A DNA stretch of 64,000 bases from a virus. A model generated the notes under the pieces. It searched no databases, was not told the origin of the DNA, and saw nothing but the letters and a program-made list of their open reading frames with translations. A program made the translations under genes and the position numbers. Within the stretch, counting starts at the first letter, position 1; the number at the start of each line of letters is the position of its first letter. Shown here one piece after another: positions 6,082 to 29,102 of this stretch. The stretch lies in IMG/VR virus record IMGVR_UViG_3300025450_000013; one strand, written 5' to 3'.

Positions 6082-6531
6082 CTACCCTTGTGGTAATAAT
6101 CCTGGGAACGCTTCATTAACAAGCGCCTCAGTTAAATGTGGTACCTTCTGATCTTTTAGAATGATACCCATATAGACATCAGCCTCTTTAGGCTCTAGAC
6201 TTTCCAATACTTGTAGTAAAAGTTCTTTCTTTCTTTTTTCGGTGAGTGCGGGAGGTGTGCGTGGATGGTTTTCCATGAAAAGATAGATTTTATCCAATGC
6301 CTGTGACATATTGCTATAACCCATACCAGGAGGTAGGTCTGTTTCTTTCTTCCAATTCGGTGCTTCTTTGATTACATATGTAGCACCTGGATGAAATGTT
6401 CCTTTTAGGACATTTACCAAAGCAAATGTTTCATTTTCTTTTAGGACCGCAATACGGTCTTTCTTAGTCTTAGCCTTGCGGAAATCATCAAAGACTTCAT
6501 ATACATTTTTCTTACTCATTATATTCCTCAA
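6082..6531 (-). CDS. Conserved T4-like hypothetical protein (DUF6433-like)
   Basis: Follows rnh; LQVLESLEPKEA...LVNEAFPGLL. Confidence 0.7.
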   Translation of the reverse strand: MRNIMSKKNVYEVFDDFRKAKTKKDRIAVLKENETFALVNVLKGTFHPGATYVIKEAPNWKKETDLPPGMGYSNMSQALDKIYLFMENHPRTPPALTEKRKKELLLQVLESLEPKEADVYMGIILKDQKVPHLTEALVNEAFPGLLPQG

Positions 6532-7388
6532 AAATCGTTGATGGACTCAATCATTACTTTGAGGCCCTTATCTATAAAGTAGTTCAACATTTTCTCTTTC
6601 GTCGCCACTTTGGTATTTTCAAACGCGGAAACGATGCTTGCCTGAATGTCTCCTGGTATATAGTCAAAATCAACCAAAGTTTGATTACGTTTATAACCAC
6701 GTAGCATAATATCCGTAGTGCAGAAAGTTTCGGCATCCTGACTAATCCATTCCTGAAGACGTTTACTATTTATGACCTTTTGACGTTCGCCTGCCGCAAA
6801 GGTATTGTCTGGTGATAGAAAGTTAGGAATGCCATCACCACGGTCACCTTTAAGAATGTGTTCACGGATGAATGTGGTAGGGTTATCAATCTTAATGAAC
6901 CGCTTTAGAATAGGTGAATACTGGGTTACATTAGGATATTTCTGTAGTTGACCAAAGTCTTTGTCCGACGACAAAATGAGAATGTTACTGCTCGACGACA
7001 ATCTAGCAGTAAGGACGGCAATGATATCATCCGCCTCGGCACCTTCTACATCCAACACCTTGTAAGGGAAACTCTCTTTGAACTCATCGCGGATTTTGTT
7101 GAGAGTGTCAAAGATAAGGTGCCAATCAAGCCCACTGGCCTCGCGGTCGTGCTTGCGCTGGCTCTTATAGAATGGAAAAAACTCACGACGCCAATACTTC
7201 TTGGAGTCGCAACAAAGTATTACATTAGGATATTTTGATTTGAACTGTCTTACATTAGCACGGATAGTATTGATAGACATATGACGAATAAGGTCCTCAT
7301 TCATCTCATGCGATTTACTTATTTGTTTCAGGTGTTGCATCAAGTTGGAAATGAGGACCTGATTTAGATCCACCATGATATAAGACAT
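6528..7388 (-). CDS. rnh: RNase H / 5'-3' exonuclease (T4 rnh)
   Basis: VDLNQV, YWRR..FPFYKSQR, EADDIIA, SSDKDFGQL, GDRGDGIPN. Confidence 0.93.
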   Translation of the reverse strand: MSYIMVDLNQVLISNLMQHLKQISKSHEMNEDLIRHMSINTIRANVRQFKSKYPNVILCCDSKKYWRREFFPFYKSQRKHDREASGLDWHLIFDTLNKIRDEFKESFPYKVLDVEGAEADDIIAVLTARLSSSSNILILSSDKDFGQLQKYPNVTQYSPILKRFIKIDNPTTFIREHILKGDRGDGIPNFLSPDNTFAAGERQKVINSKRLQEWISQDAETFCTTDIMLRGYKRNQTLVDFDYIPGDIQASIVSAFENTKVATKEKMLNYFIDKGLKVMIESINDF

Positions 7389-20527: not shown

Positions 20528-21367
20528 TTATTCAGATGCCAAGTTGTGTTTTGATGGATCGTATTTATCTTTTCTAATACGATGAACTCCACCACCTGTA
20601 GCAGCATGTGGATCACCCTTGTTTGTTACAAGAACGGTATCAGATTTTTCTTTACCAATACCAAGACCCTGCTTAACTGCGGTAGAAACCTTCTTCTTCA
20701 TTTTTTTCATAGCATATGATTTCTTTACAGGTGTCAGACCTTCGTCAAGGTCTTCATCTTCCTTAACAACAGCAGGCCATTCTTTATCTAACTTACCATT
20801 AGCAAGTTTCTTATCTTTTGTTCTTTCAGATGTATCCATAGCCTGTTTGGTACTTGGAGAACCATTGTTACCATCGGTATGCATTGGTTCTTTAACAGCA
20901 CTTCTCTGGCTCTGTGTTACTTTATCCCAACATTCTTTCATGGTCATCTCGGCTGTATCAAGCATTTTGTCTAGTTCTGCTTTATCAACAACCTTAGCAA
21001 CACATAAAAACATACCCATAATCTGTGTATATTGGAAGAATAGATGATACTGAACTGGCACTTCACGAATAAACTCACCTTGGTCGCTCATACCCATCTT
21101 TTCACCAAACTGTCTAATCTCATAGACCTCTACACCTTTATCACCTTCCAAAAATGTTCTCTTTGGAAGGATAATGCTAAAGTAGGCAAGGGCCTTAGAA
21201 ATCTTACGCAGTGTAATGTAAGGTGTAATATGTGAACGGCTACAGATGCCAGCAAGAATGGCATTAACCTCGGAACGAACTGCATCGTTTTCTAGGTCAA
21301 AGTTGCCATTCTCTACATTTGCAGTTGGAAGGACTTCCTCACTAATAAATGACTTAAAACTTTTCAT
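20528..21367 (-). CDS. Probable internal head protein with capsid-targeting-like N-terminus
   Basis: MKSFKSFISEE resembles the T4 internal-protein CTS; internal hydrophobic-x-E motifs. Confidence 0.65.
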   Translation of the reverse strand: MKSFKSFISEEVLPTANVENGNFDLENDAVRSEVNAILAGICSRSHITPYITLRKISKALAYFSIILPKRTFLEGDKGVEVYEIRQFGEKMGMSDQGEFIREVPVQYHLFFQYTQIMGMFLCVAKVVDKAELDKMLDTAEMTMKECWDKVTQSQRSAVKEPMHTDGNNGSPSTKQAMDTSERTKDKKLANGKLDKEWPAVVKEDEDLDEGLTPVKKSYAMKKMKKKVSTAVKQGLGIGKEKSDTVLVTNKGDPHAATGGGVHRIRKDKYDPSKHNLASE

Positions 21368-22059: not shown

Positions 22060-22956
22060 TTAATTTACAGATTGTTGTTGCATCCCTGCTTTAACAGGGT
22101 TTACTTCAATTGGATCCGCTGGTTGACCTGTGGCAGTTTTGCCAGGGTTTAGCATCTTTTGATCGGTTGATTTCTGCAAGGCAACCTTAGTTGCTTCCTG
22201 TGCCAACTTTTTGGATGATCCATAACGATGTTCAAGGGCACCGAGTGTACCGCTACCCTGATTGTTTGATCCCTTTTGTGAAGGTACCTTATTTATTCCT
22301 TCACTTAAACCAGACGGTCTCTTCGGTGGAATAGGTGCTGGTGTTGGTGCAGCCGGTGCTGGTGTAGTAGGTTTAGGTGCTGGTACTGACGGAACACCAG
22401 GTGCAGTTGATTTATTCTGGTCCGGTTCTGTCTTAACCGATGCCTTAACGTCCAAATCAGCCGGTCTTGAAGGTGGTGTTGGTGTCTGTGCAGGTTCTGG
22501 TTTTGGAGATTGTGCGGGTTCCGGTACAGAAGTTCCTGAAGATGAAACTTTTATATCATCTGGATTCCACTTAGTATCACCTTGTGACTTATCTGCTTTG
22601 AAATTAGCAGATGTTGGGTCATTAGCACCACCTTTTACAGCAGTTTTACCTTTAATTGCGTTCATATACTGACCGAGTGTTGCACCTGGATTGAATTTTC
22701 TGAAATCATCCAATTCAGCTTTAGACACAACACCTGGTTTAGAGGTGTATGATGATTTGGTAGTTGGTGCAGTTTTGTTTGTTGGAGCAGGTTTTGACAA
22801 AGGTTCTGTTGTGTCTGGTTTAAAACCTGCTTTTTTAACTGCGGCATGAGAATAATCGCTATATGATTTTGCAGCTTTGCCAACAGCATCAGCGGCATAA
22901 TCTAGGCCCTGTTTAGAAAACATTGTATCAAACAAGTCCTTAAAAGAAGATTTCAT
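22060..22956 (-). CDS. Pro/Lys-rich low-complexity protein (possibly the frameshift extension of the upstream gene)
   Basis: PEPAQ/PAP repeats; no properly spaced RBS. Confidence 0.7.
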   Translation of the reverse strand: MKSSFKDLFDTMFSKQGLDYAADAVGKAAKSYSDYSHAAVKKAGFKPDTTEPLSKPAPTNKTAPTTKSSYTSKPGVVSKAELDDFRKFNPGATLGQYMNAIKGKTAVKGGANDPTSANFKADKSQGDTKWNPDDIKVSSSGTSVPEPAQSPKPEPAQTPTPPSRPADLDVKASVKTEPDQNKSTAPGVPSVPAPKPTTPAPAAPTPAPIPPKRPSGLSEGINKVPSQKGSNNQGSGTLGALEHRYGSSKKLAQEATKVALQKSTDQKMLNPGKTATGQPADPIEVNPVKAGMQQQSVN

Positions 22957-22988
22957 CTCATTTACCGACTTACCAGTTGCCTGTGCGT

Positions 22989-24458
22989 TTAAAAAGACTG
23001 TTCTTCCTTCATATGCTTTGCACGGATCTTGGCAAGGATAGCACCTGCTACCTTCTTACCTTTTTCTTCTGAACCATATTCTTTACCGGCTTTCTTGGCA
23101 ATCTTTGAGAACATTTTGTCTGGTTTGCCGAGGTCTTTACCAGCACGACCAGCCTTTGCTGAATATGCTGCCTCTTCCATTTTCTTAGGTGCTTCGTGTG
23201 CAGTTGAACCAGCAGCCTTATGGAAACGGCCATGGTCAAAACGAGGATTCTGCTTTGCGAAGATACCTGCGTGATGTGTAGCAAGTTCATTTCTCTTTTC
23301 TTGGGACTCATGACCTTTGATTAGGTCTGCGACCTGCTGGAAATGCTTGCGTGAAACTGCCTCATCGAGGTGTTCTTCTGGTAGATGCGGTTTTGGACGA
23401 CCACGTTCACGCTCAATCTTGGCAGATGTCTGTTTTGCCCAAGATTTTTGTGTAGTCTTATTATATTTACCAGACTTTGTTGGTGTTGAGTATTCTGAAC
23501 GACCTGAATGACCATCATTACCTTTTATTCTTGACCGTCCTTCACCGCGACCTGGCTTTTCGTTCTTACCCTGCTTACGTTCAAGATGTTTGCGGAGTCT
23601 ATCTGATGTTTTGCCGGCCCAATGATAATCGGATACCTGGCCATTATCAAGATTATCTTGTGATTTTTTATAGGCCTTGATAGCAAGTTTTTTTGAGACT
23701 TCATCCAACTTTGCTTCTCTCATAGCACCGATTTTAGCAGCAAGACCTGCTTTATCTGCGGCAGATGGACCTGATGTGTCTGCTTTTGGTGCTGTAGTTG
23801 AAACAACTGGTTTGTTATCTTTTGTAACAGCAGCACGGTCTGGAGCAGAGTAATCAATCTCTTCTGGTAGATTTGGTTTTGTATGCTTACCGATTTGGTT
23901 TTTGATCTGACTTTTTAGATCAACACCGTGCTTTTTCTGCTGTGCTTTACTGTACCATTTATCTGGATCTTTTCTGTGAGCCAACACATCTTTATTCGGA
24001 CCATCACTGATCTTACCTTTTTTGTTTAGTTGAAACTTAGTTTCATGTCCGTCTTCACGATCTTCTGATGAGTCGGTACCCCAAGTCTTACCTTCACGGC
24101 CTGGTTTGCGCCATTGTGATCCCTCTTCCATCTTGCCAGCAGCCTTAGCAGCACGGAAGCGTGAACCCCATACTTCGTCTTTTGGAGATTCAATCTTGCC
24201 GTCTTTGTCATAGTCTTTGTCAGCAAGTTTTTTGCCTTCTGTAAGATTGCCTGCCATCATGCCTTTATAGACTTCTTCAATACGAGCATCATATGCGGCA
24301 AGGTGTTCGCGGACAACTGCGTTGCGATTGAATACGCCGAACTCTTCGTTGACGGCGTTGATTGCTTCGCGGCGCTTCTGGCCTAGTTCCATAGCGGCTT
24401 TGGCGGCTTCCACCAAAGGGTCTGCTTTCTTTGAGTTAAATTTGTTAGAGAATACCAT
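22989..24458 (-). CDS. Highly charged probable internal head polyprotein
   Basis: Late promoter and AAGGA RBS; repeated LTEG/MEEG/LPEE/LDEV/LDEA/MEEA/MKEE motifs. Confidence 0.75.
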   Translation of the reverse strand: MVFSNKFNSKKADPLVEAAKAAMELGQKRREAINAVNEEFGVFNRNAVVREHLAAYDARIEEVYKGMMAGNLTEGKKLADKDYDKDGKIESPKDEVWGSRFRAAKAAGKMEEGSQWRKPGREGKTWGTDSSEDREDGHETKFQLNKKGKISDGPNKDVLAHRKDPDKWYSKAQQKKHGVDLKSQIKNQIGKHTKPNLPEEIDYSAPDRAAVTKDNKPVVSTTAPKADTSGPSAADKAGLAAKIGAMREAKLDEVSKKLAIKAYKKSQDNLDNGQVSDYHWAGKTSDRLRKHLERKQGKNEKPGRGEGRSRIKGNDGHSGRSEYSTPTKSGKYNKTTQKSWAKQTSAKIERERGRPKPHLPEEHLDEAVSRKHFQQVADLIKGHESQEKRNELATHHAGIFAKQNPRFDHGRFHKAAGSTAHEAPKKMEEAAYSAKAGRAGKDLGKPDKMFSKIAKKAGKEYGSEEKGKKVAGAILAKIRAKHMKEEQSF

Positions 24459-24508: not shown

Positions 24509-26545
24509 CTATTTAGTATATTTCTTTTTCTTATATTTCTGTTTTTTAAATAATGATGTTTTTTCATCTTCTGCTTTTGCATCAGGTCTTACATCTTCTG
24601 GAGGACCACCAGTAGCAGATGCCGAAGCCATAGTTCCAGAATATGGGTCATCCAAACTTTCTTTCTTCAATCTATCGGCAACTTCTTTAAGTTTCTTGTC
24701 GGCCAAGGCACCATACTTTGCCTTGAACCTTCTTCGTGTTTCTTCTTTCACCATCCAACGGTCAATCTGCTTGCTATTGGCACCGTTTACACCGGTGAAA
24801 TCTAAACTTTGGTTATCACCGAAACCAGGACCTTTAGGCATACCAGCTTCGTCTCCTACTCTATCACCACCAATAGGACCAGGATTCTGGTTTCTTGGAT
24901 CTAAAGGTGAAGGTTTTTCTTCTTTTCTCATTTTGTTATTCAATTTTAATACTTTCATAGTTGCGAACTTACCAGGTTCTTGGCCTGGCGTGTCTAGTTT
25001 ATATTTGTCTGTAAGTTGCTGTGTGCCCCAGTTACCAGCACCACCAACCTCGTTTAGCATTTTTTCAAATCGCTTATCTGCCTCATTCAAAGCAAACTCT
25101 GCGATTTCTTTTGAAACAGAATGAATTAGTTTATCATATGTTTCTTTGATTACATTTTCGTTTAGGTTTAGATCAAGGTCATTCTTGACCTCAATTACCT
25201 TTTCAAATAACTGGTCAAAGCGGTCAAGGGACTCTTGTGCACCTTTCCACTTGGCAAAGCGAACTGCCTCGGTGATTACACGACCACCTTTGGTTGCTCT
25301 GGATTCATTTCGTTGTTTGGATACCTCGTTGCTGGTATTCACAAACACCATAATAGTTTCATAGCCTTGGATTTCCAAGGCCTCTTTGATTGTCTTTACT
25401 GTAAGGTAATCAGAAGCACCATTCACTACAATAGCACCTTGGAGTTTCTGGTTATGGAAAGTATCTGCGGATACCTCGGTGAATCCAAATGGCAGAATGG
25501 CCTCTTTTAGGATTTTATCTTTACCAGAACCAGGTGTACCAGAAAGAATAATAGCCTTTTCTTCACCAACGTAGGTCATATCAAAGTAGGATGGATTGTC
25601 TTGTCCAAAATAACGCATAACCTTGCCGGCCTCGGAGTTGGCCTCGTTCTCAATCTTGGAACCTGTTGCTCCTTCTTTTTTGATATTCTTACCAAGGAGA
25701 CCATCGAGGTTCTGTTTGTGGTGAACCAACTCATGTGCTACCGAACGGAAGATATCCATTGGATGTCGGTTCTTTGTAGAAATCCTAACCAACTTTTCGG
25801 ATGGTGAGTAAGAAGCAAATGAAGGTTGGTTTACTGGATTCTTATCTCCACTTTCATCTGAACCCATATACTGAACTCTTGGTTTCTCATCAATACCAAG
25901 ATGGGCACAGGTGTAGTCAACAAAAGACATTAGTTTTTCATGGAACTCTTTACGAGACATTGCACTAGTTTGTTCTTTAAGATACCATTCTTTTAGTTGT
26001 GTTCTGGTTGCTGTAAAGATTTTTCTAGCAAGTGCTTTATCTTTGGCAGCCGATGACTTGGCGAATGTAGCAAAGTCACCCTTGCGAACAGCGGCACGTA
26101 GAGCAGTTCCAGAAATACCCTGCTTTCTAGCACCAGATGATACAACCTTGAACTTCTTAAATGGATAATGTTTTTTAGGATCAAAACCTTTAGCAGTCTT
26201 AGGCATAACATACTTGCCAAGTTGTGTTCTAAACTCATTGACACGGTCATCACCAACCACAAATGTAACATCTTCATAACCTTCATCTGCCAGTTTCTTA
26301 CAGATAGCAAATGCGGTCTTCATAGAAGGGTCATCCACAAAGTTTACACCAGGGAAAATCTGACGAAGAAACGCCATCTTTTGTTTTGGTGATAGTGGAT
26401 TTTTGGAGGAGTCGTGTGATTGGGATGTATAGATGCGGTGATCAGCACCAGTTTTATTTGCCAAATTTACGGCATAATGGATTAGTTCTGCATGGCCTGT
26501 GGTCGGTGGATTATAACGGCCAAATGTGAATACTATTTTTTTCAT
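24509..26545 (-). CDS. Multidomain protein: cytidylyltransferase-like + HExxH domain + P-loop kinase-like
   Basis: FGRYNPPTTGH and ISGTALR; VAHELVHHKQ; LSGTPGSGKD; linkers contain LKE/VGEE/LNE. Confidence 0.8.
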   Translation of the reverse strand: MKKIVFTFGRYNPPTTGHAELIHYAVNLANKTGADHRIYTSQSHDSSKNPLSPKQKMAFLRQIFPGVNFVDDPSMKTAFAICKKLADEGYEDVTFVVGDDRVNEFRTQLGKYVMPKTAKGFDPKKHYPFKKFKVVSSGARKQGISGTALRAAVRKGDFATFAKSSAAKDKALARKIFTATRTQLKEWYLKEQTSAMSRKEFHEKLMSFVDYTCAHLGIDEKPRVQYMGSDESGDKNPVNQPSFASYSPSEKLVRISTKNRHPMDIFRSVAHELVHHKQNLDGLLGKNIKKEGATGSKIENEANSEAGKVMRYFGQDNPSYFDMTYVGEEKAIILSGTPGSGKDKILKEAILPFGFTEVSADTFHNQKLQGAIVVNGASDYLTVKTIKEALEIQGYETIMVFVNTSNEVSKQRNESRATKGGRVITEAVRFAKWKGAQESLDRFDQLFEKVIEVKNDLDLNLNENVIKETYDKLIHSVSKEIAEFALNEADKRFEKMLNEVGGAGNWGTQQLTDKYKLDTPGQEPGKFATMKVLKLNNKMRKEEKPSPLDPRNQNPGPIGGDRVGDEAGMPKGPGFGDNQSLDFTGVNGANSKQIDRWMVKEETRRRFKAKYGALADKKLKEVADRLKKESLDDPYSGTMASASATGGPPEDVRPDAKAEDEKTSLFKKQKYKKKKYTK
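24510..24516 (-). promoter_or_regulatory. T4-type late promoter motif (C/A)TAAATA
   Basis: Same motif precedes genes at 26571, 30120, 33953, 34664, 37185, 52359, 53366, 54574, 60563 and occurs in all four cassettes; similar to T4 gp55 TATAAATA. Confidence 0.7.
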
Positions 26546-26639: not shown

Positions 26640-27245
26640 TTATTTTCCGTAACGGGAAGGGACTCCGGTTTTTGGGTTGACAAGGTATGCTTCAAAATCT
26701 ATCTCCGGGTGTAACTTTGCTAGTTGTAATAACATATTTAGGTTACCTTCATGGTCATCCCACATTCGGATCTTGTTGAACTTACCGCTGTCAATATACT
26801 TACGAATAACAACAGCCTTAGATAATGGTGCCGCATTACCACCACCAAATACATTACCAGAACGTTCTACATGAACCTGGTCAATAGGGAATCCATGGTC
26901 ACGGAACTTTTTGAGAAACATATCTTTGTCGGATACGTCTGCTCTTGCGGTTACGATAATGGTACGAGAGTGTGCGCCTTGATGACCAACAACCAACTGG
27001 GCCCGTCTAATCATCTTCTCAATAGGTTCTGCTTTATCATGGAAATACTTACCAGACCTAAATTCACCAAAGTCTAGTCGTTCACCTGGTTTTGGTTTAT
27101 AATGTTTTAAATCTTCGGATGAAAGACGGGCAACAACCTTGCCGTCTTTTACAACATTTGTCTTGGCATTAGGCATAAACAACGTATCGTCAATATCAAA
27201 GATGTTTAGTGTACCTTGACCTACTTTTGTTTTAAACTTTTTCAT
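26640..27245 (-). CDS. HAD-superfamily phosphatase
   Basis: [19 protein letters not shown] motifs. Confidence 0.8.
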
Positions 27246-27793
27246 TTTTTCTTTTCTCTGGTCTCTATATATTTTTTCACTCTTTCATCAGTTTCTTTTG
27301 TTAGTCCTTTATTCCAAGGTATTTTACCCTTGTGCGATTCACTCTGACTTTTTATCCACTTTTCACCTCTTGTTCTTGCGGCATGCCTTGCTCTTTCTGC
27401 TTGAGCCTTTTTCCATTCGGGATCTTGTTTTCTTTTTTCCATTGCTTCTTTATGCTTAGAACTATTCTTCATAGATTTACGCATTTTTTCATTTCTTTCA
27501 GGTGAACCAACAAAACCGGAAGTAGATTCACCACCATCAGTTTTATTCATTAGTATTCCTGTAACATTATCTTTACGACCATACCAACGAATGTATCTTC
27601 TTTCTAAAGCAAGAGCACCTATTTCAGTTAGATTGGACTCCATAATAACTATTTTTGATTTATCTTTTGGAACTGTAACTGTTCTGTGTTTAGTCCATGC
27701 TCTCTGTTTTTGTCCCTTACCTATGTAATAAGGTGTACCATCTTTTCTTAGATAAGCATAGACATAATAATGGTGGGGTGAATAAATAGACAT
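27242..27793 (-). CDS. Free-standing GIY-YIG homing endonuclease with NUMOD3-like tail
   Basis: Start MSIY; [39 protein letters not shown]; [13 protein letters not shown]. Confidence 0.88.
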
Positions 27794-27859
27794 GCTGATA
27801 CTCCTAAACAGTATTAGAGTCCGTGGGTGTTGTCGCACCGTGACGGACATCCTATTTAG
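27782..27859. repeat. Endonuclease-leader cassette copy C
   Basis: CTGATACT/AGTATTAG and GTCCGT.GGTG..CACC.GTG.ACGGAC; its CTAAATAG also provides the stop codon of the upstream gene. Confidence 0.88.
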
Positions 27860-29102
27860 GCTTCCATGATTTTTGCGCAAGGAAATTGGACCTTGAGAAG
27901 TTCATCCTGTCTACCAATTTCCACGCTTGGCCATCAACTGAAAGACAACCAACATATCCTTCTGGTGTAGTAACTTTATATCCACCATCCGGAGTATGTA
28001 GAAAAGTTCCAATATCGTTTACCTCATCAAATTTGCGAATAAGCATTGTCTTGGCATCTATGAATAGGTTCTGTAGTTGGAATATGTTTTTTAGTCCAGC
28101 GGCATTCTTCTTATACCAACCAACAACCTTATTCTTTTCCATAGTTCTTTTTTGTTTTGTAGCAGGCATCTTGGCATCGGCAATCTGTTTATCATACTTG
28201 TCTGAAACAAACTTGATGATTTCATTCACATGACCGGCACCCATGTGTTCGCCTGCTCGGACTTTTTGGTTATAATAAGTCATAATAGGAATACGATATG
28301 TATCGTTAGAGGCAATCTCGTTTAGTAGTGCCGCAGGTATTTGTCTGAATAGATTACCTGCCTGTGAAAGAATACCAGACAGTCTATCGTTTTCTGCCTT
28401 GGTTAGTGTGGCCTTACCTGTGACATCCATGAAACGATTTGTCCTATACCAGACATTGCGTGATGAATGTAACCGCCCAATATCAACATCGAAGTGAGTT
28501 TGAAGATTGGCCATACTATTACCGATGTAAGTAGTATGAAAAACAATTCCCATCTTAGCTGCCATAACCTGTTTGGCAAGTGTAGTACCTTCTGGTACAG
28601 CATAAGTAATCGTATTAGGCCTAAACGTAATATACTTTTTACCATCAATGGTCTCTGATTTTAGTTCATCATGTGAAAACATAAAATCACCATGGATGAT
28701 ACCTTTAATTCCAAGTTCTGGTAGATACTTTAATGCCAAAGATAGTTTTTCAGCCAAACCACCCGAATGGTTACTCCGAATATCCGATTGGGTGTAGTTT
28801 AGTTTGGCACCTTTGTTAAAGATACTTTTAGAACCGACAAAGAACTTACCGTTATCTGGGTTGATACCGGCATAGAGTGCGGGCGCGCCATCGAACTTAG
28901 TCCGAAGAATGAGACCACCAGAACGGCGGGCCTCATTCAGAGTTTTACCGTCATCGGCAAACATATCTCTTAGAGAGATTAAAAACTGTATAGCATTTCT
29001 TGTACCAGCAACACCACCTTCCAAGACAGCATCCTCAATATGTGTGAGGTGACGGTCTTTCTCGGCAGCGGATTCGGTAATATAAGTTGAAAATTTTTTC
29101 AC
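27852..29102 (-). CDS. Ligase-like nucleotidyltransferase (DUF6267-like) with CTS-like start
   Basis: GTG start [10 protein letters not shown] (TAGTG overlap); HLTHIED, TKFDGAP (KxDG), GDFMF, EGYV, KLVDR. Confidence 0.7.

Follow-up and report, generated by a model that had tools for sequence, protein, structure and literature searches.

A conserved stop-codon junction very probably joins two genes of a T4-like phage by programmed -1 frameshifting

Two open reading frames meet at a slippery stop codon

The virus record IMGVR_UViG_3300025450_000013 (IMG/VR), of which a stretch of 64,000 nucleotides (nt) was analysed (hereafter, the window), carries two adjacent open reading frames (ORFs), termed here A and B. 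Their junction had been proposed in a first-pass annotation of the sequence to be a site of programmed -1 frameshifting. As with all large ORFs of the window, A and B lie on the minus strand. Read downward from position 23012, this strand gives ATG AAG GAA GAA CAG TCT TTT TAA ACG and includes the element T_TTT_TAA, in which the first T is position 22995, the Phe codon TTT occupies 22992-22994 and the stop codon TAA occupies 22989-22991 (Table 1). The ATG of ORF B lies 33 nt past the end of ORF A, in the -1 phase. Starting at 22992, the -1 frame meets no stop for 310 codons and takes in ORF B as far as 22060, while the 0 frame shuts 8 codons past the stop of A and the +1 frame shuts after 6. 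The first-pass annotation had described a -1 frame that is open into the 298-amino-acid (aa) ORF and a +1 frame that closes after 6 codons, a linker that ends in V-N-E directly before the ATG of B, and predicted products of 489 aa and about 799 aa; all of these are borne out by the window sequence, in which the predicted A-B fusion amounts to 489 + 310 = 799 aa. An identical 489-aa A product is recorded in four contigs. Tryptic digestion of the window fusion is predicted to give EEQSFLNAQATGK as the junction peptide, and its analogues in relatives would be of the EDQSFLGAQATGK type.

Table 1. Positions of the A-B junction features in the window
Feature	Position	Strand	Remarks
ORF A	22989..24458	minus	489 aa
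ORF B, called from first ATG	22060..22956	minus	298 aa; 3' portion of a 310-codon -1 ORF beginning at 22992
Shift site T_TTT_TAA	22989..22995	minus	Z_ZZN slippery tetramer; 0-frame stop codon in the A site
Shine-Dalgarno (SD)-like AAGGA	23005..23009	minus	10 nt 5' of the Phe codon
Linker L-N-A-Q-A-T-G-K-S-V-N-E	22957..22992	minus	12 codons; readable in the -1 frame only
Small hairpin	22967..22989 (possible 8-bp extension, two bulges); core 22974-22983	minus	3 bp + GNRA tetraloop
Last 74 aa of B	22063..22284	minus	separate small gene 'C' (52-99 aa) in relatives

Elsewhere in the window, the minus-strand ORF at 6528-7388 likewise ends T TTT TGA (site 6519-6535), with a 149-codon run in the -1 frame. 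The gene that follows it has a clear GAGGAA SD sequence with its ATG 9 nt on, and the two look like an ordinary gene pair.

The junction recurs in a single phase among divergent relatives

Junction loci were gathered from viral and metagenome contigs by profile search and pattern scans, giving 13 distinct split junctions with the window counted. Further anchored pattern scans of metagenome, viral and genome collections added only two junction sequences to the first sets. Every one of the 13 split junctions reads N-T TTY TAR R-CGCAC. The Phe codon is TTC in nine and TTT in four, the stop codon is TAG in nine and TAA in four, and the codon before Phe is TCT, GGT or GAT. At all 13, the -1 frame is the sole continuation, running on for 151-516 codons, while a stop is reached after 8-17 codons in the 0 frame and after 6 in the +1 frame. 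The first-pass annotation had named conservation of T-TTT-TAA and of the -1 phase in homologous loci as the check on its proposal; the motif proved to be kept in the broader form T_TTY_TAR, in the -1 phase throughout, and random phase was not seen.

An unbiased survey was begun at the N-terminus of A homologues and covered 22 distinct complete ORFs. Ten of these are split, all with the same motif and phase, 11 are fused and one ends differently; no split ORF in another phase was found among the 22. N-terminal identity between split lineages goes down to 44%, and every B ORF is nonetheless intact. Because of this divergence, the sequences indicate that the split arrangement is old and maintained.

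These results bear on whether the junction could stem from faulty sequencing or assembly, or from a frameshift that recently inactivated a once-fused gene and left B as a pseudogene remnant. Although fused single-ORF homologues exist and the window has a T5 homopolymer, 13 distinct DNA junctions and 37 protein clusters, drawn from independent samples, have the stop in the same place, homopolymer-free junctions behave alike, and the B ORFs have stayed intact over their 151-516 codons despite the N-terminal divergence of A. Since nine of the 13 junctions carry TTC, with no T5 run and in the same phase, a homopolymer error is excluded, and we find an explanation by error or gene decay barely credible.

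Transcriptional slippage, in which RNA polymerase would add one U in the T5 run and thereby place A and B in frame on the mRNA, was considered as well. The five-T run is found in the window and in three relatives, and the extra U would lead to the same protein as a -1 slip of the ribosome. However, the sequence at nine of the 13 junctions is TCTTTC or GGTTTC, where the T run is just three long and the architecture is unchanged, and productive transcriptional slippage normally requires runs of about seven or more; we therefore hold it to be very improbable here. As most junctions are without a homopolymer, both sequencing error and transcriptional slippage fail for the family.

Two features of the family were observed in addition. 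There is no TGA among the 13 stop codons at the frameshift sites, although TGA would keep a Leu codon in the -1 frame; its absence may reflect a dependence on stops read by RF1, or chance. In addition, an A homologue at L046:2390-3814, on a contig shared with L092, has an in-frame TAG after codon 129, past which 345 codons in the same frame lead to the usual F-TAG junction. This internal TAG could be an error, a nonsense allele or a site of readthrough.

The linker and stretches without start codons resemble coding sequence of fused homologues

Among the best 120 A homologues at the protein level, 37 stop exactly at the end of A (..QSF, ..SSF or ..QGF), and many others run on as a single ORF. 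Six single-ORF homologues read through F-x-x-A...G-K-S-V-x-E, which is the peptide found in the -1 frame of the window between the stop of A and the ATG of B, and the -1 model places two residues between F and the next Ala, as in the fused forms. The fused homologue P0036 has in-frame ...SVNE-MKSSW.., and the window has ...SVNE-MKSSF..; given this match to the window's KSVNE-MKSSF, the initiator Met of B is an internal residue in P0036. In several split forms, the Met after the linker sits in a motif that is also found within fused ORFs, which argues against selection for a start codon.

The best evidence that the linker is translated is given by relatives in which the called start of B would lie far from the junction. 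In L037, the first 130 codons past the shift site include no ATG, GTG or TTG, and L047 and L094 are without a start codon for 35 and 27-42 codons, respectively. Across its start-less stretch, L037 shares ~78% identity with a segment that fused P0121 (675 aa) encodes in frame, and the alignment of the L037 -1 ORF with P0121 starts at residue 3 (BLASTP E 3e-39, 215 columns). Judged from this homology, the stretch would be translatable only if ribosomes enter from A.

The same evidence can be set against an alternative in which A and B are translated separately. B would then start from its own ATG (22956), directly or by reinitiation after termination 33 nt upstream; the junction would serve either as an RNA element or as a linker for recombination between conserved and hypervariable modules, and frameshifting would be incidental. 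In keeping with this, the modules flanking the junction are shuffled between lineages, and the linker, which holds the invariant 11-nt GGTAAGTCGGT, is conserved at synonymous sites, as expected of an RNA or DNA element. Yet the linker codons for Val, Ser and Glu differ synonymously among junctions (Ser is TCC, TCT or AGC), a slippery tetramer at the stop and one phase are common to all split junctions, and the motif around the post-linker Met also occurs inside fused ORFs. The open stretches before any start in L037, L047 and L094, the first of them homologous to in-frame P0121, likewise speak against separate translation, which we rate as unlikely.

A Walker-A motif (GxxxxGKS) in the linker was tried and rejected: its first Gly is missing in the window and several relatives, and no NTPase domain follows.

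Candidate stimulators surround the shift site

The core of a small hairpin starts 5 nt past the stop codon and is paired in all 13 junctions. In the 13-junction alignment, pair 43-50 is AU in six sequences, CG in four and UA in three, and pair 44-49 is GC in 12 and UA in one; this covariation lies above all 500 shuffles and all slid controls. In the compensatory changes, a second-position base of one codon is paired with the third position of the Thr codon two codons further along, where the change is synonymous. An extended 8-bp model of the hairpin (columns 36-58 of alignment A3 of the 13 junctions) has 96% of its cells paired and, if such a structure forms, it would explain the invariance of GGTAAGTCGGT. 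No Rfam family was found at the junction. Altogether, the case for the GNRA hairpin as a stimulator is suggestive.

Upstream of the slip codon, the first-pass annotation had pointed to an SD-like AAGGA at a spacing of about 10 nt. The element is indeed present there in the window and may stimulate the shift, but its conservation is partial: eight of the 13 junctions have AAGGAAGA, and the other five read AAAGAAGA. Of the candidate stimulators, only the A-site stop codon is universal. As for the slippery sequence, U_UUC and U_UUU come second and third, respectively, among the shift-prone tetramers of Escherichia coli, and both are used by insertion sequence (IS) elements (PMC4066793).

Two other slips were rejected. 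In place of the GCA of GCA_AAG, 8 codons upstream, several lineages have GCC or GCT, and in L008, L025 and L037 this site does not lead into an open -1 frame. A +1 slip on TTT_T is chemically possible, but a stop follows 6 codons on.

A proposed mechanism, and the points that weigh against it

We conclude that a real, conserved and programmed -1 frameshift very probably joins A and B as one recoded gene. The central claim of the first-pass annotation, a programmed -1 slip on T_TTT that joins A to B, is thereby upheld in that the motif, the phase and the linker peptide are kept in 13 divergent junctions and homologues exist in which the two parts are fused. The sequences show the motif, its phase, the open frame, the homology of the linker to fused forms and conservation over divergent lineages; the slip itself, its efficiency and the stimulators that act on it are what we infer from them.

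In the proposed mechanism, the majority of ribosomes would terminate at TAA and release the 489-aa A. In a fraction of ribosomes, the peptidyl-tRNA-Phe on UUU, with a slowly decoded stop in the A site, would re-pair one base back on U_UU of U_UUU. Decoding would then restart at UUA in the -1 frame, and the 799-aa product would consist of A, Leu, an 11-residue linker and B. The shift may be made more efficient by the GNRA hairpin, 5 nt beyond the stop, and in the window also by AAGGA 10 nt upstream. Frameshifting would fix the ratio of free A to A bearing a variable cargo, B (LysM-bearing in relatives), and the relatives with a single fused ORF would make the fusion only.

Several points weigh against this reading. 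The window site alone is within chance, the -1 phase being common among gene pairs of the window through ATGA overlaps, and because the single site is not beyond chance its weight rests on conservation in relatives. At -3.4 to -6.5 kcal/mol, the hairpin is of very low stability, its single-sequence folds are no better than those of shuffles (z-scores not significant), and its covariation depends on about four haplotypes. Since the SD-like element is kept in just eight of the 13 junctions, it is no family-wide requirement. Conservation of the linker at the nucleotide level makes peptide-level and RNA-level selection hard to separate, and as TCT TTT persists in fused forms too, inheritance and not selection may partly account for the tetramer.

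The remaining points concern the start of B, and they are shared with the alternative of separate translation. An ATG lies 12-18 codons past the site in 10 of the 13 lineages, the window included, and the duplex energy of the window's B ATG with the anti-SD sequence is average (-4.4 kcal/mol, with a window median of -3.9 kcal/mol). With an ATG nearby and an average anti-SD score, B could have an independent start in addition to the frameshift or in place of it. The first-pass annotation had held that this ATG lacks a properly spaced ribosome-binding site; as its anti-SD energy is near the window median, the supposed lack does not set it apart, and that part of the argument for frameshifting falls away.

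Comparison with known frameshifts and with T4 internal proteins

Programmed frameshifts of tailed phages are best known in tail chaperones and a few capsid genes, and in T4-like phages we know of no programmed frameshift besides the bypassing in gene 60. 'Shifty stop' frameshifting was reportedly described by Weiss et al. in 1987. The mechanism class to which the A-B junction would belong, a Z_ZZN tetramer at a stop codon, is thus already known, while the gene family and the phage group are new; full-text literature searches found no description of an A-B frameshift.

The tetramer and 'shifty stop' frameshifting of the IS1 and IS3 families (Sharma et al. 2014, PMC4066793) is alike in that a single tRNA re-pairs on U_UUY, with a 0-frame stop directly 3' of the shift codon. 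Alike, too, are the short ORF overlap that leads to a trans-frame fusion and the downstream structure, a putative stimulator in A-B, which starts ~5 nt past the A-site codon. The A-B case differs in that the protein is that of a phage and not a transposase, in its 3-8 bp GNRA hairpin in place of a strong pseudoknot or long stem, and in the natural fused alleles that coexist within the A-B family.

With E. coli dnaX (A_AAA_AAG, an SD 10 nt upstream, and a stem-loop), the window shares a -1 shift, an SD-like AAGGA 10 nt upstream, a putative downstream hairpin and two products whose ratio would be set by the shift. Unlike dnaX, it has no tandem X_XXY_YYZ heptamer; the window reads G_TCT_TTT, where a P-site tRNA-Ser cannot re-pair. 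Furthermore, the SD-like element is absent in five of the 13 A-B relatives, the A-B hairpin is far weaker, and the dnaX shift shortens the product whereas the A-B shift would lengthen it. In T7 gene 10A/10B and lambda G/GT, ribosomes that shift by -1 close to the 3' end of the first ORF make a minor, C-terminally extended form of a late phage gene product, as is proposed for A-B, but the A-B proteins are unrelated to these and have a tetramer at the stop instead of X_XXY_YYZ. The genomic position differs from both as well: G/GT-type shifts lie in the tail module just before the tape-measure gene, and A-B is not next to tape-measure, capsid or other structural genes in the window.

At the level of the products, A-B bears a resemblance, and no more than that, to the internal proteins of T4 and their protease gp21 (PMC9026906). 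Shared features are a T4-like phage, a gp21-type protease in related genomes, a hypervariable family with conserved ends, and a linker of the form hydrophobic-x-Glu. In T4, the gp21 cleavage sites are L/I-x-E, and heads take up cargo that is attached to the C-terminal end of IPIII (PMC9026906). The A-B linker has Val where the T4 sites have Leu or Ile, and from the likeness of its conserved V-x-E to gp21 sites we infer that it may later be cleaved there. Another difference is that the conserved N-terminus of A has P-L-V-E at about residue 17, unlike what we take to be the T4 capsid-targeting peptide, MKTYQEFIAE.

By analogy with T4, packaging of a carrier plus cargo with later cleavage would be an attractive model. 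A wider idea is that the junction is a portable recoding cassette, made up of the tail of A, T_TTY_TAR, a mini GNRA hairpin and the G-K-S-V-x-E linker, with which T4-like lake phages would attach hypervariable, often LysM-bearing cargo to a conserved carrier at a fixed sub-stoichiometric ratio. A gp21-type prohead protease would cut at V-x-E and free the cargo in the capsid for injection, and evolution would toggle between fused and frameshift-dependent states and so tune the dose of cargo. We put this idea forward as speculation, with doubt outweighing confidence.

Conservation of the A-B case spans a large, abundant family of uncultured freshwater myoviruses, in which the natural fused alleles amount to built-in controls. 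Its minimal signal, a U_UUY tetramer by UAG or UAA with a tiny GNRA hairpin, is easily testable. If frameshifting does occur, annotation pipelines miscall B-type ORFs as independent genes from an internal Met, and up to 130 codons are missed in L037-type genomes.

Proteins A, B and C

A homologues numbered 464 at E <= 1e-3 among 8000 scored candidates. The family shares an N-terminal domain of ~70 aa and a basic C-terminal tail of ~70 aa, and the region between them varies. The N-terminus is a conserved helical hairpin (about residues 14-69), and the tail ends ...KHMKEEQSF. An AlphaFold2 model of A has a mean pLDDT of 61 and helices at 14-69, 364-415 and 448-486, which suggests a mostly disordered protein with three helical hairpins. 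For A, no sequence match was found in Pfam, PHROGs or PDB, and neither these sources nor the ESM Atlas yielded a function for A or for the B of the window. The relative L003, at 79% identity, has A fused in frame to an unrelated segment of ~100 aa, and the frameshift cassette is not used there. A CTAAATA resembling a late promoter lies upstream of A; this motif is not enriched in the window (18 found, 15 expected).

The B of the window is low in complexity and rich in P, A, T and S. Its residues 52-230 resemble the segment that follows the A tail in fused P0018, P0007 and P0009. It has no Pfam match and hence no LysM domain (PF01476); LysM is found (E 1e-6 to 1e-8) in the B ORFs of L037:3783-4751, L047:4203-5366 and L059:4344-5177, and also in P0105 and P0121. 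The C-terminal 74 aa of the window's B are 85% identical to a 77-aa ORF of L003 (L003:5764-5997). Where C is a separate gene, it begins at a TAATG overlap directly behind the conserved terminus ...VQVG-x-NKYRIV of B; a TAATG overlap behind ...KYRIV is seen in 10 fused relatives. The window is without this motif, and B and C are fused there.

Genomic setting

The window carries replication genes of T4 type, namely a DNA polymerase ~47% identical to those of cyanomyoviruses, a UvsX-like recombinase and a DnaB-like helicase. Its source is an uncultured T4-like myovirus, apparently of lake origin going by the sample names; among cultured phages, blastn and tblastn found no DNA or protein relative of A. 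Related contigs reach 164-176 kb, and the three near-complete ones all encode a gp21-type prohead protease. The neighbours of A-B are a cytidylyltransferase/HExxH/kinase-like fusion, an Ig-like 'head protein', an M15 peptidase, a primase and a ribonucleotide reductase. The first of these is the ORF at 24509-26545 (minus strand, 678 aa), upstream of A, which combines a cytidylyltransferase-like domain, HExxH and a Zeta-toxin/AAA_33 kinase-like P-loop domain; L003 has a 666-aa counterpart in the same position.

A GIY-YIG homing-endonuclease gene (188 aa) lies at L003:5997-6563, between gene C and the Ig-like 215-aa gene, and a GIY-YIG ORF of the window that is similar to it is located elsewhere, at 27242-27880. 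Two genes downstream of B, the ORF at 20528-21367 (minus strand, 279 aa) starts MKSFKSFISE and ends hydrophobic-x-Glu. This start resembles the presumed T4 targeting peptide given above, and the 279-aa product is, from its sequence, a candidate packaged protein.

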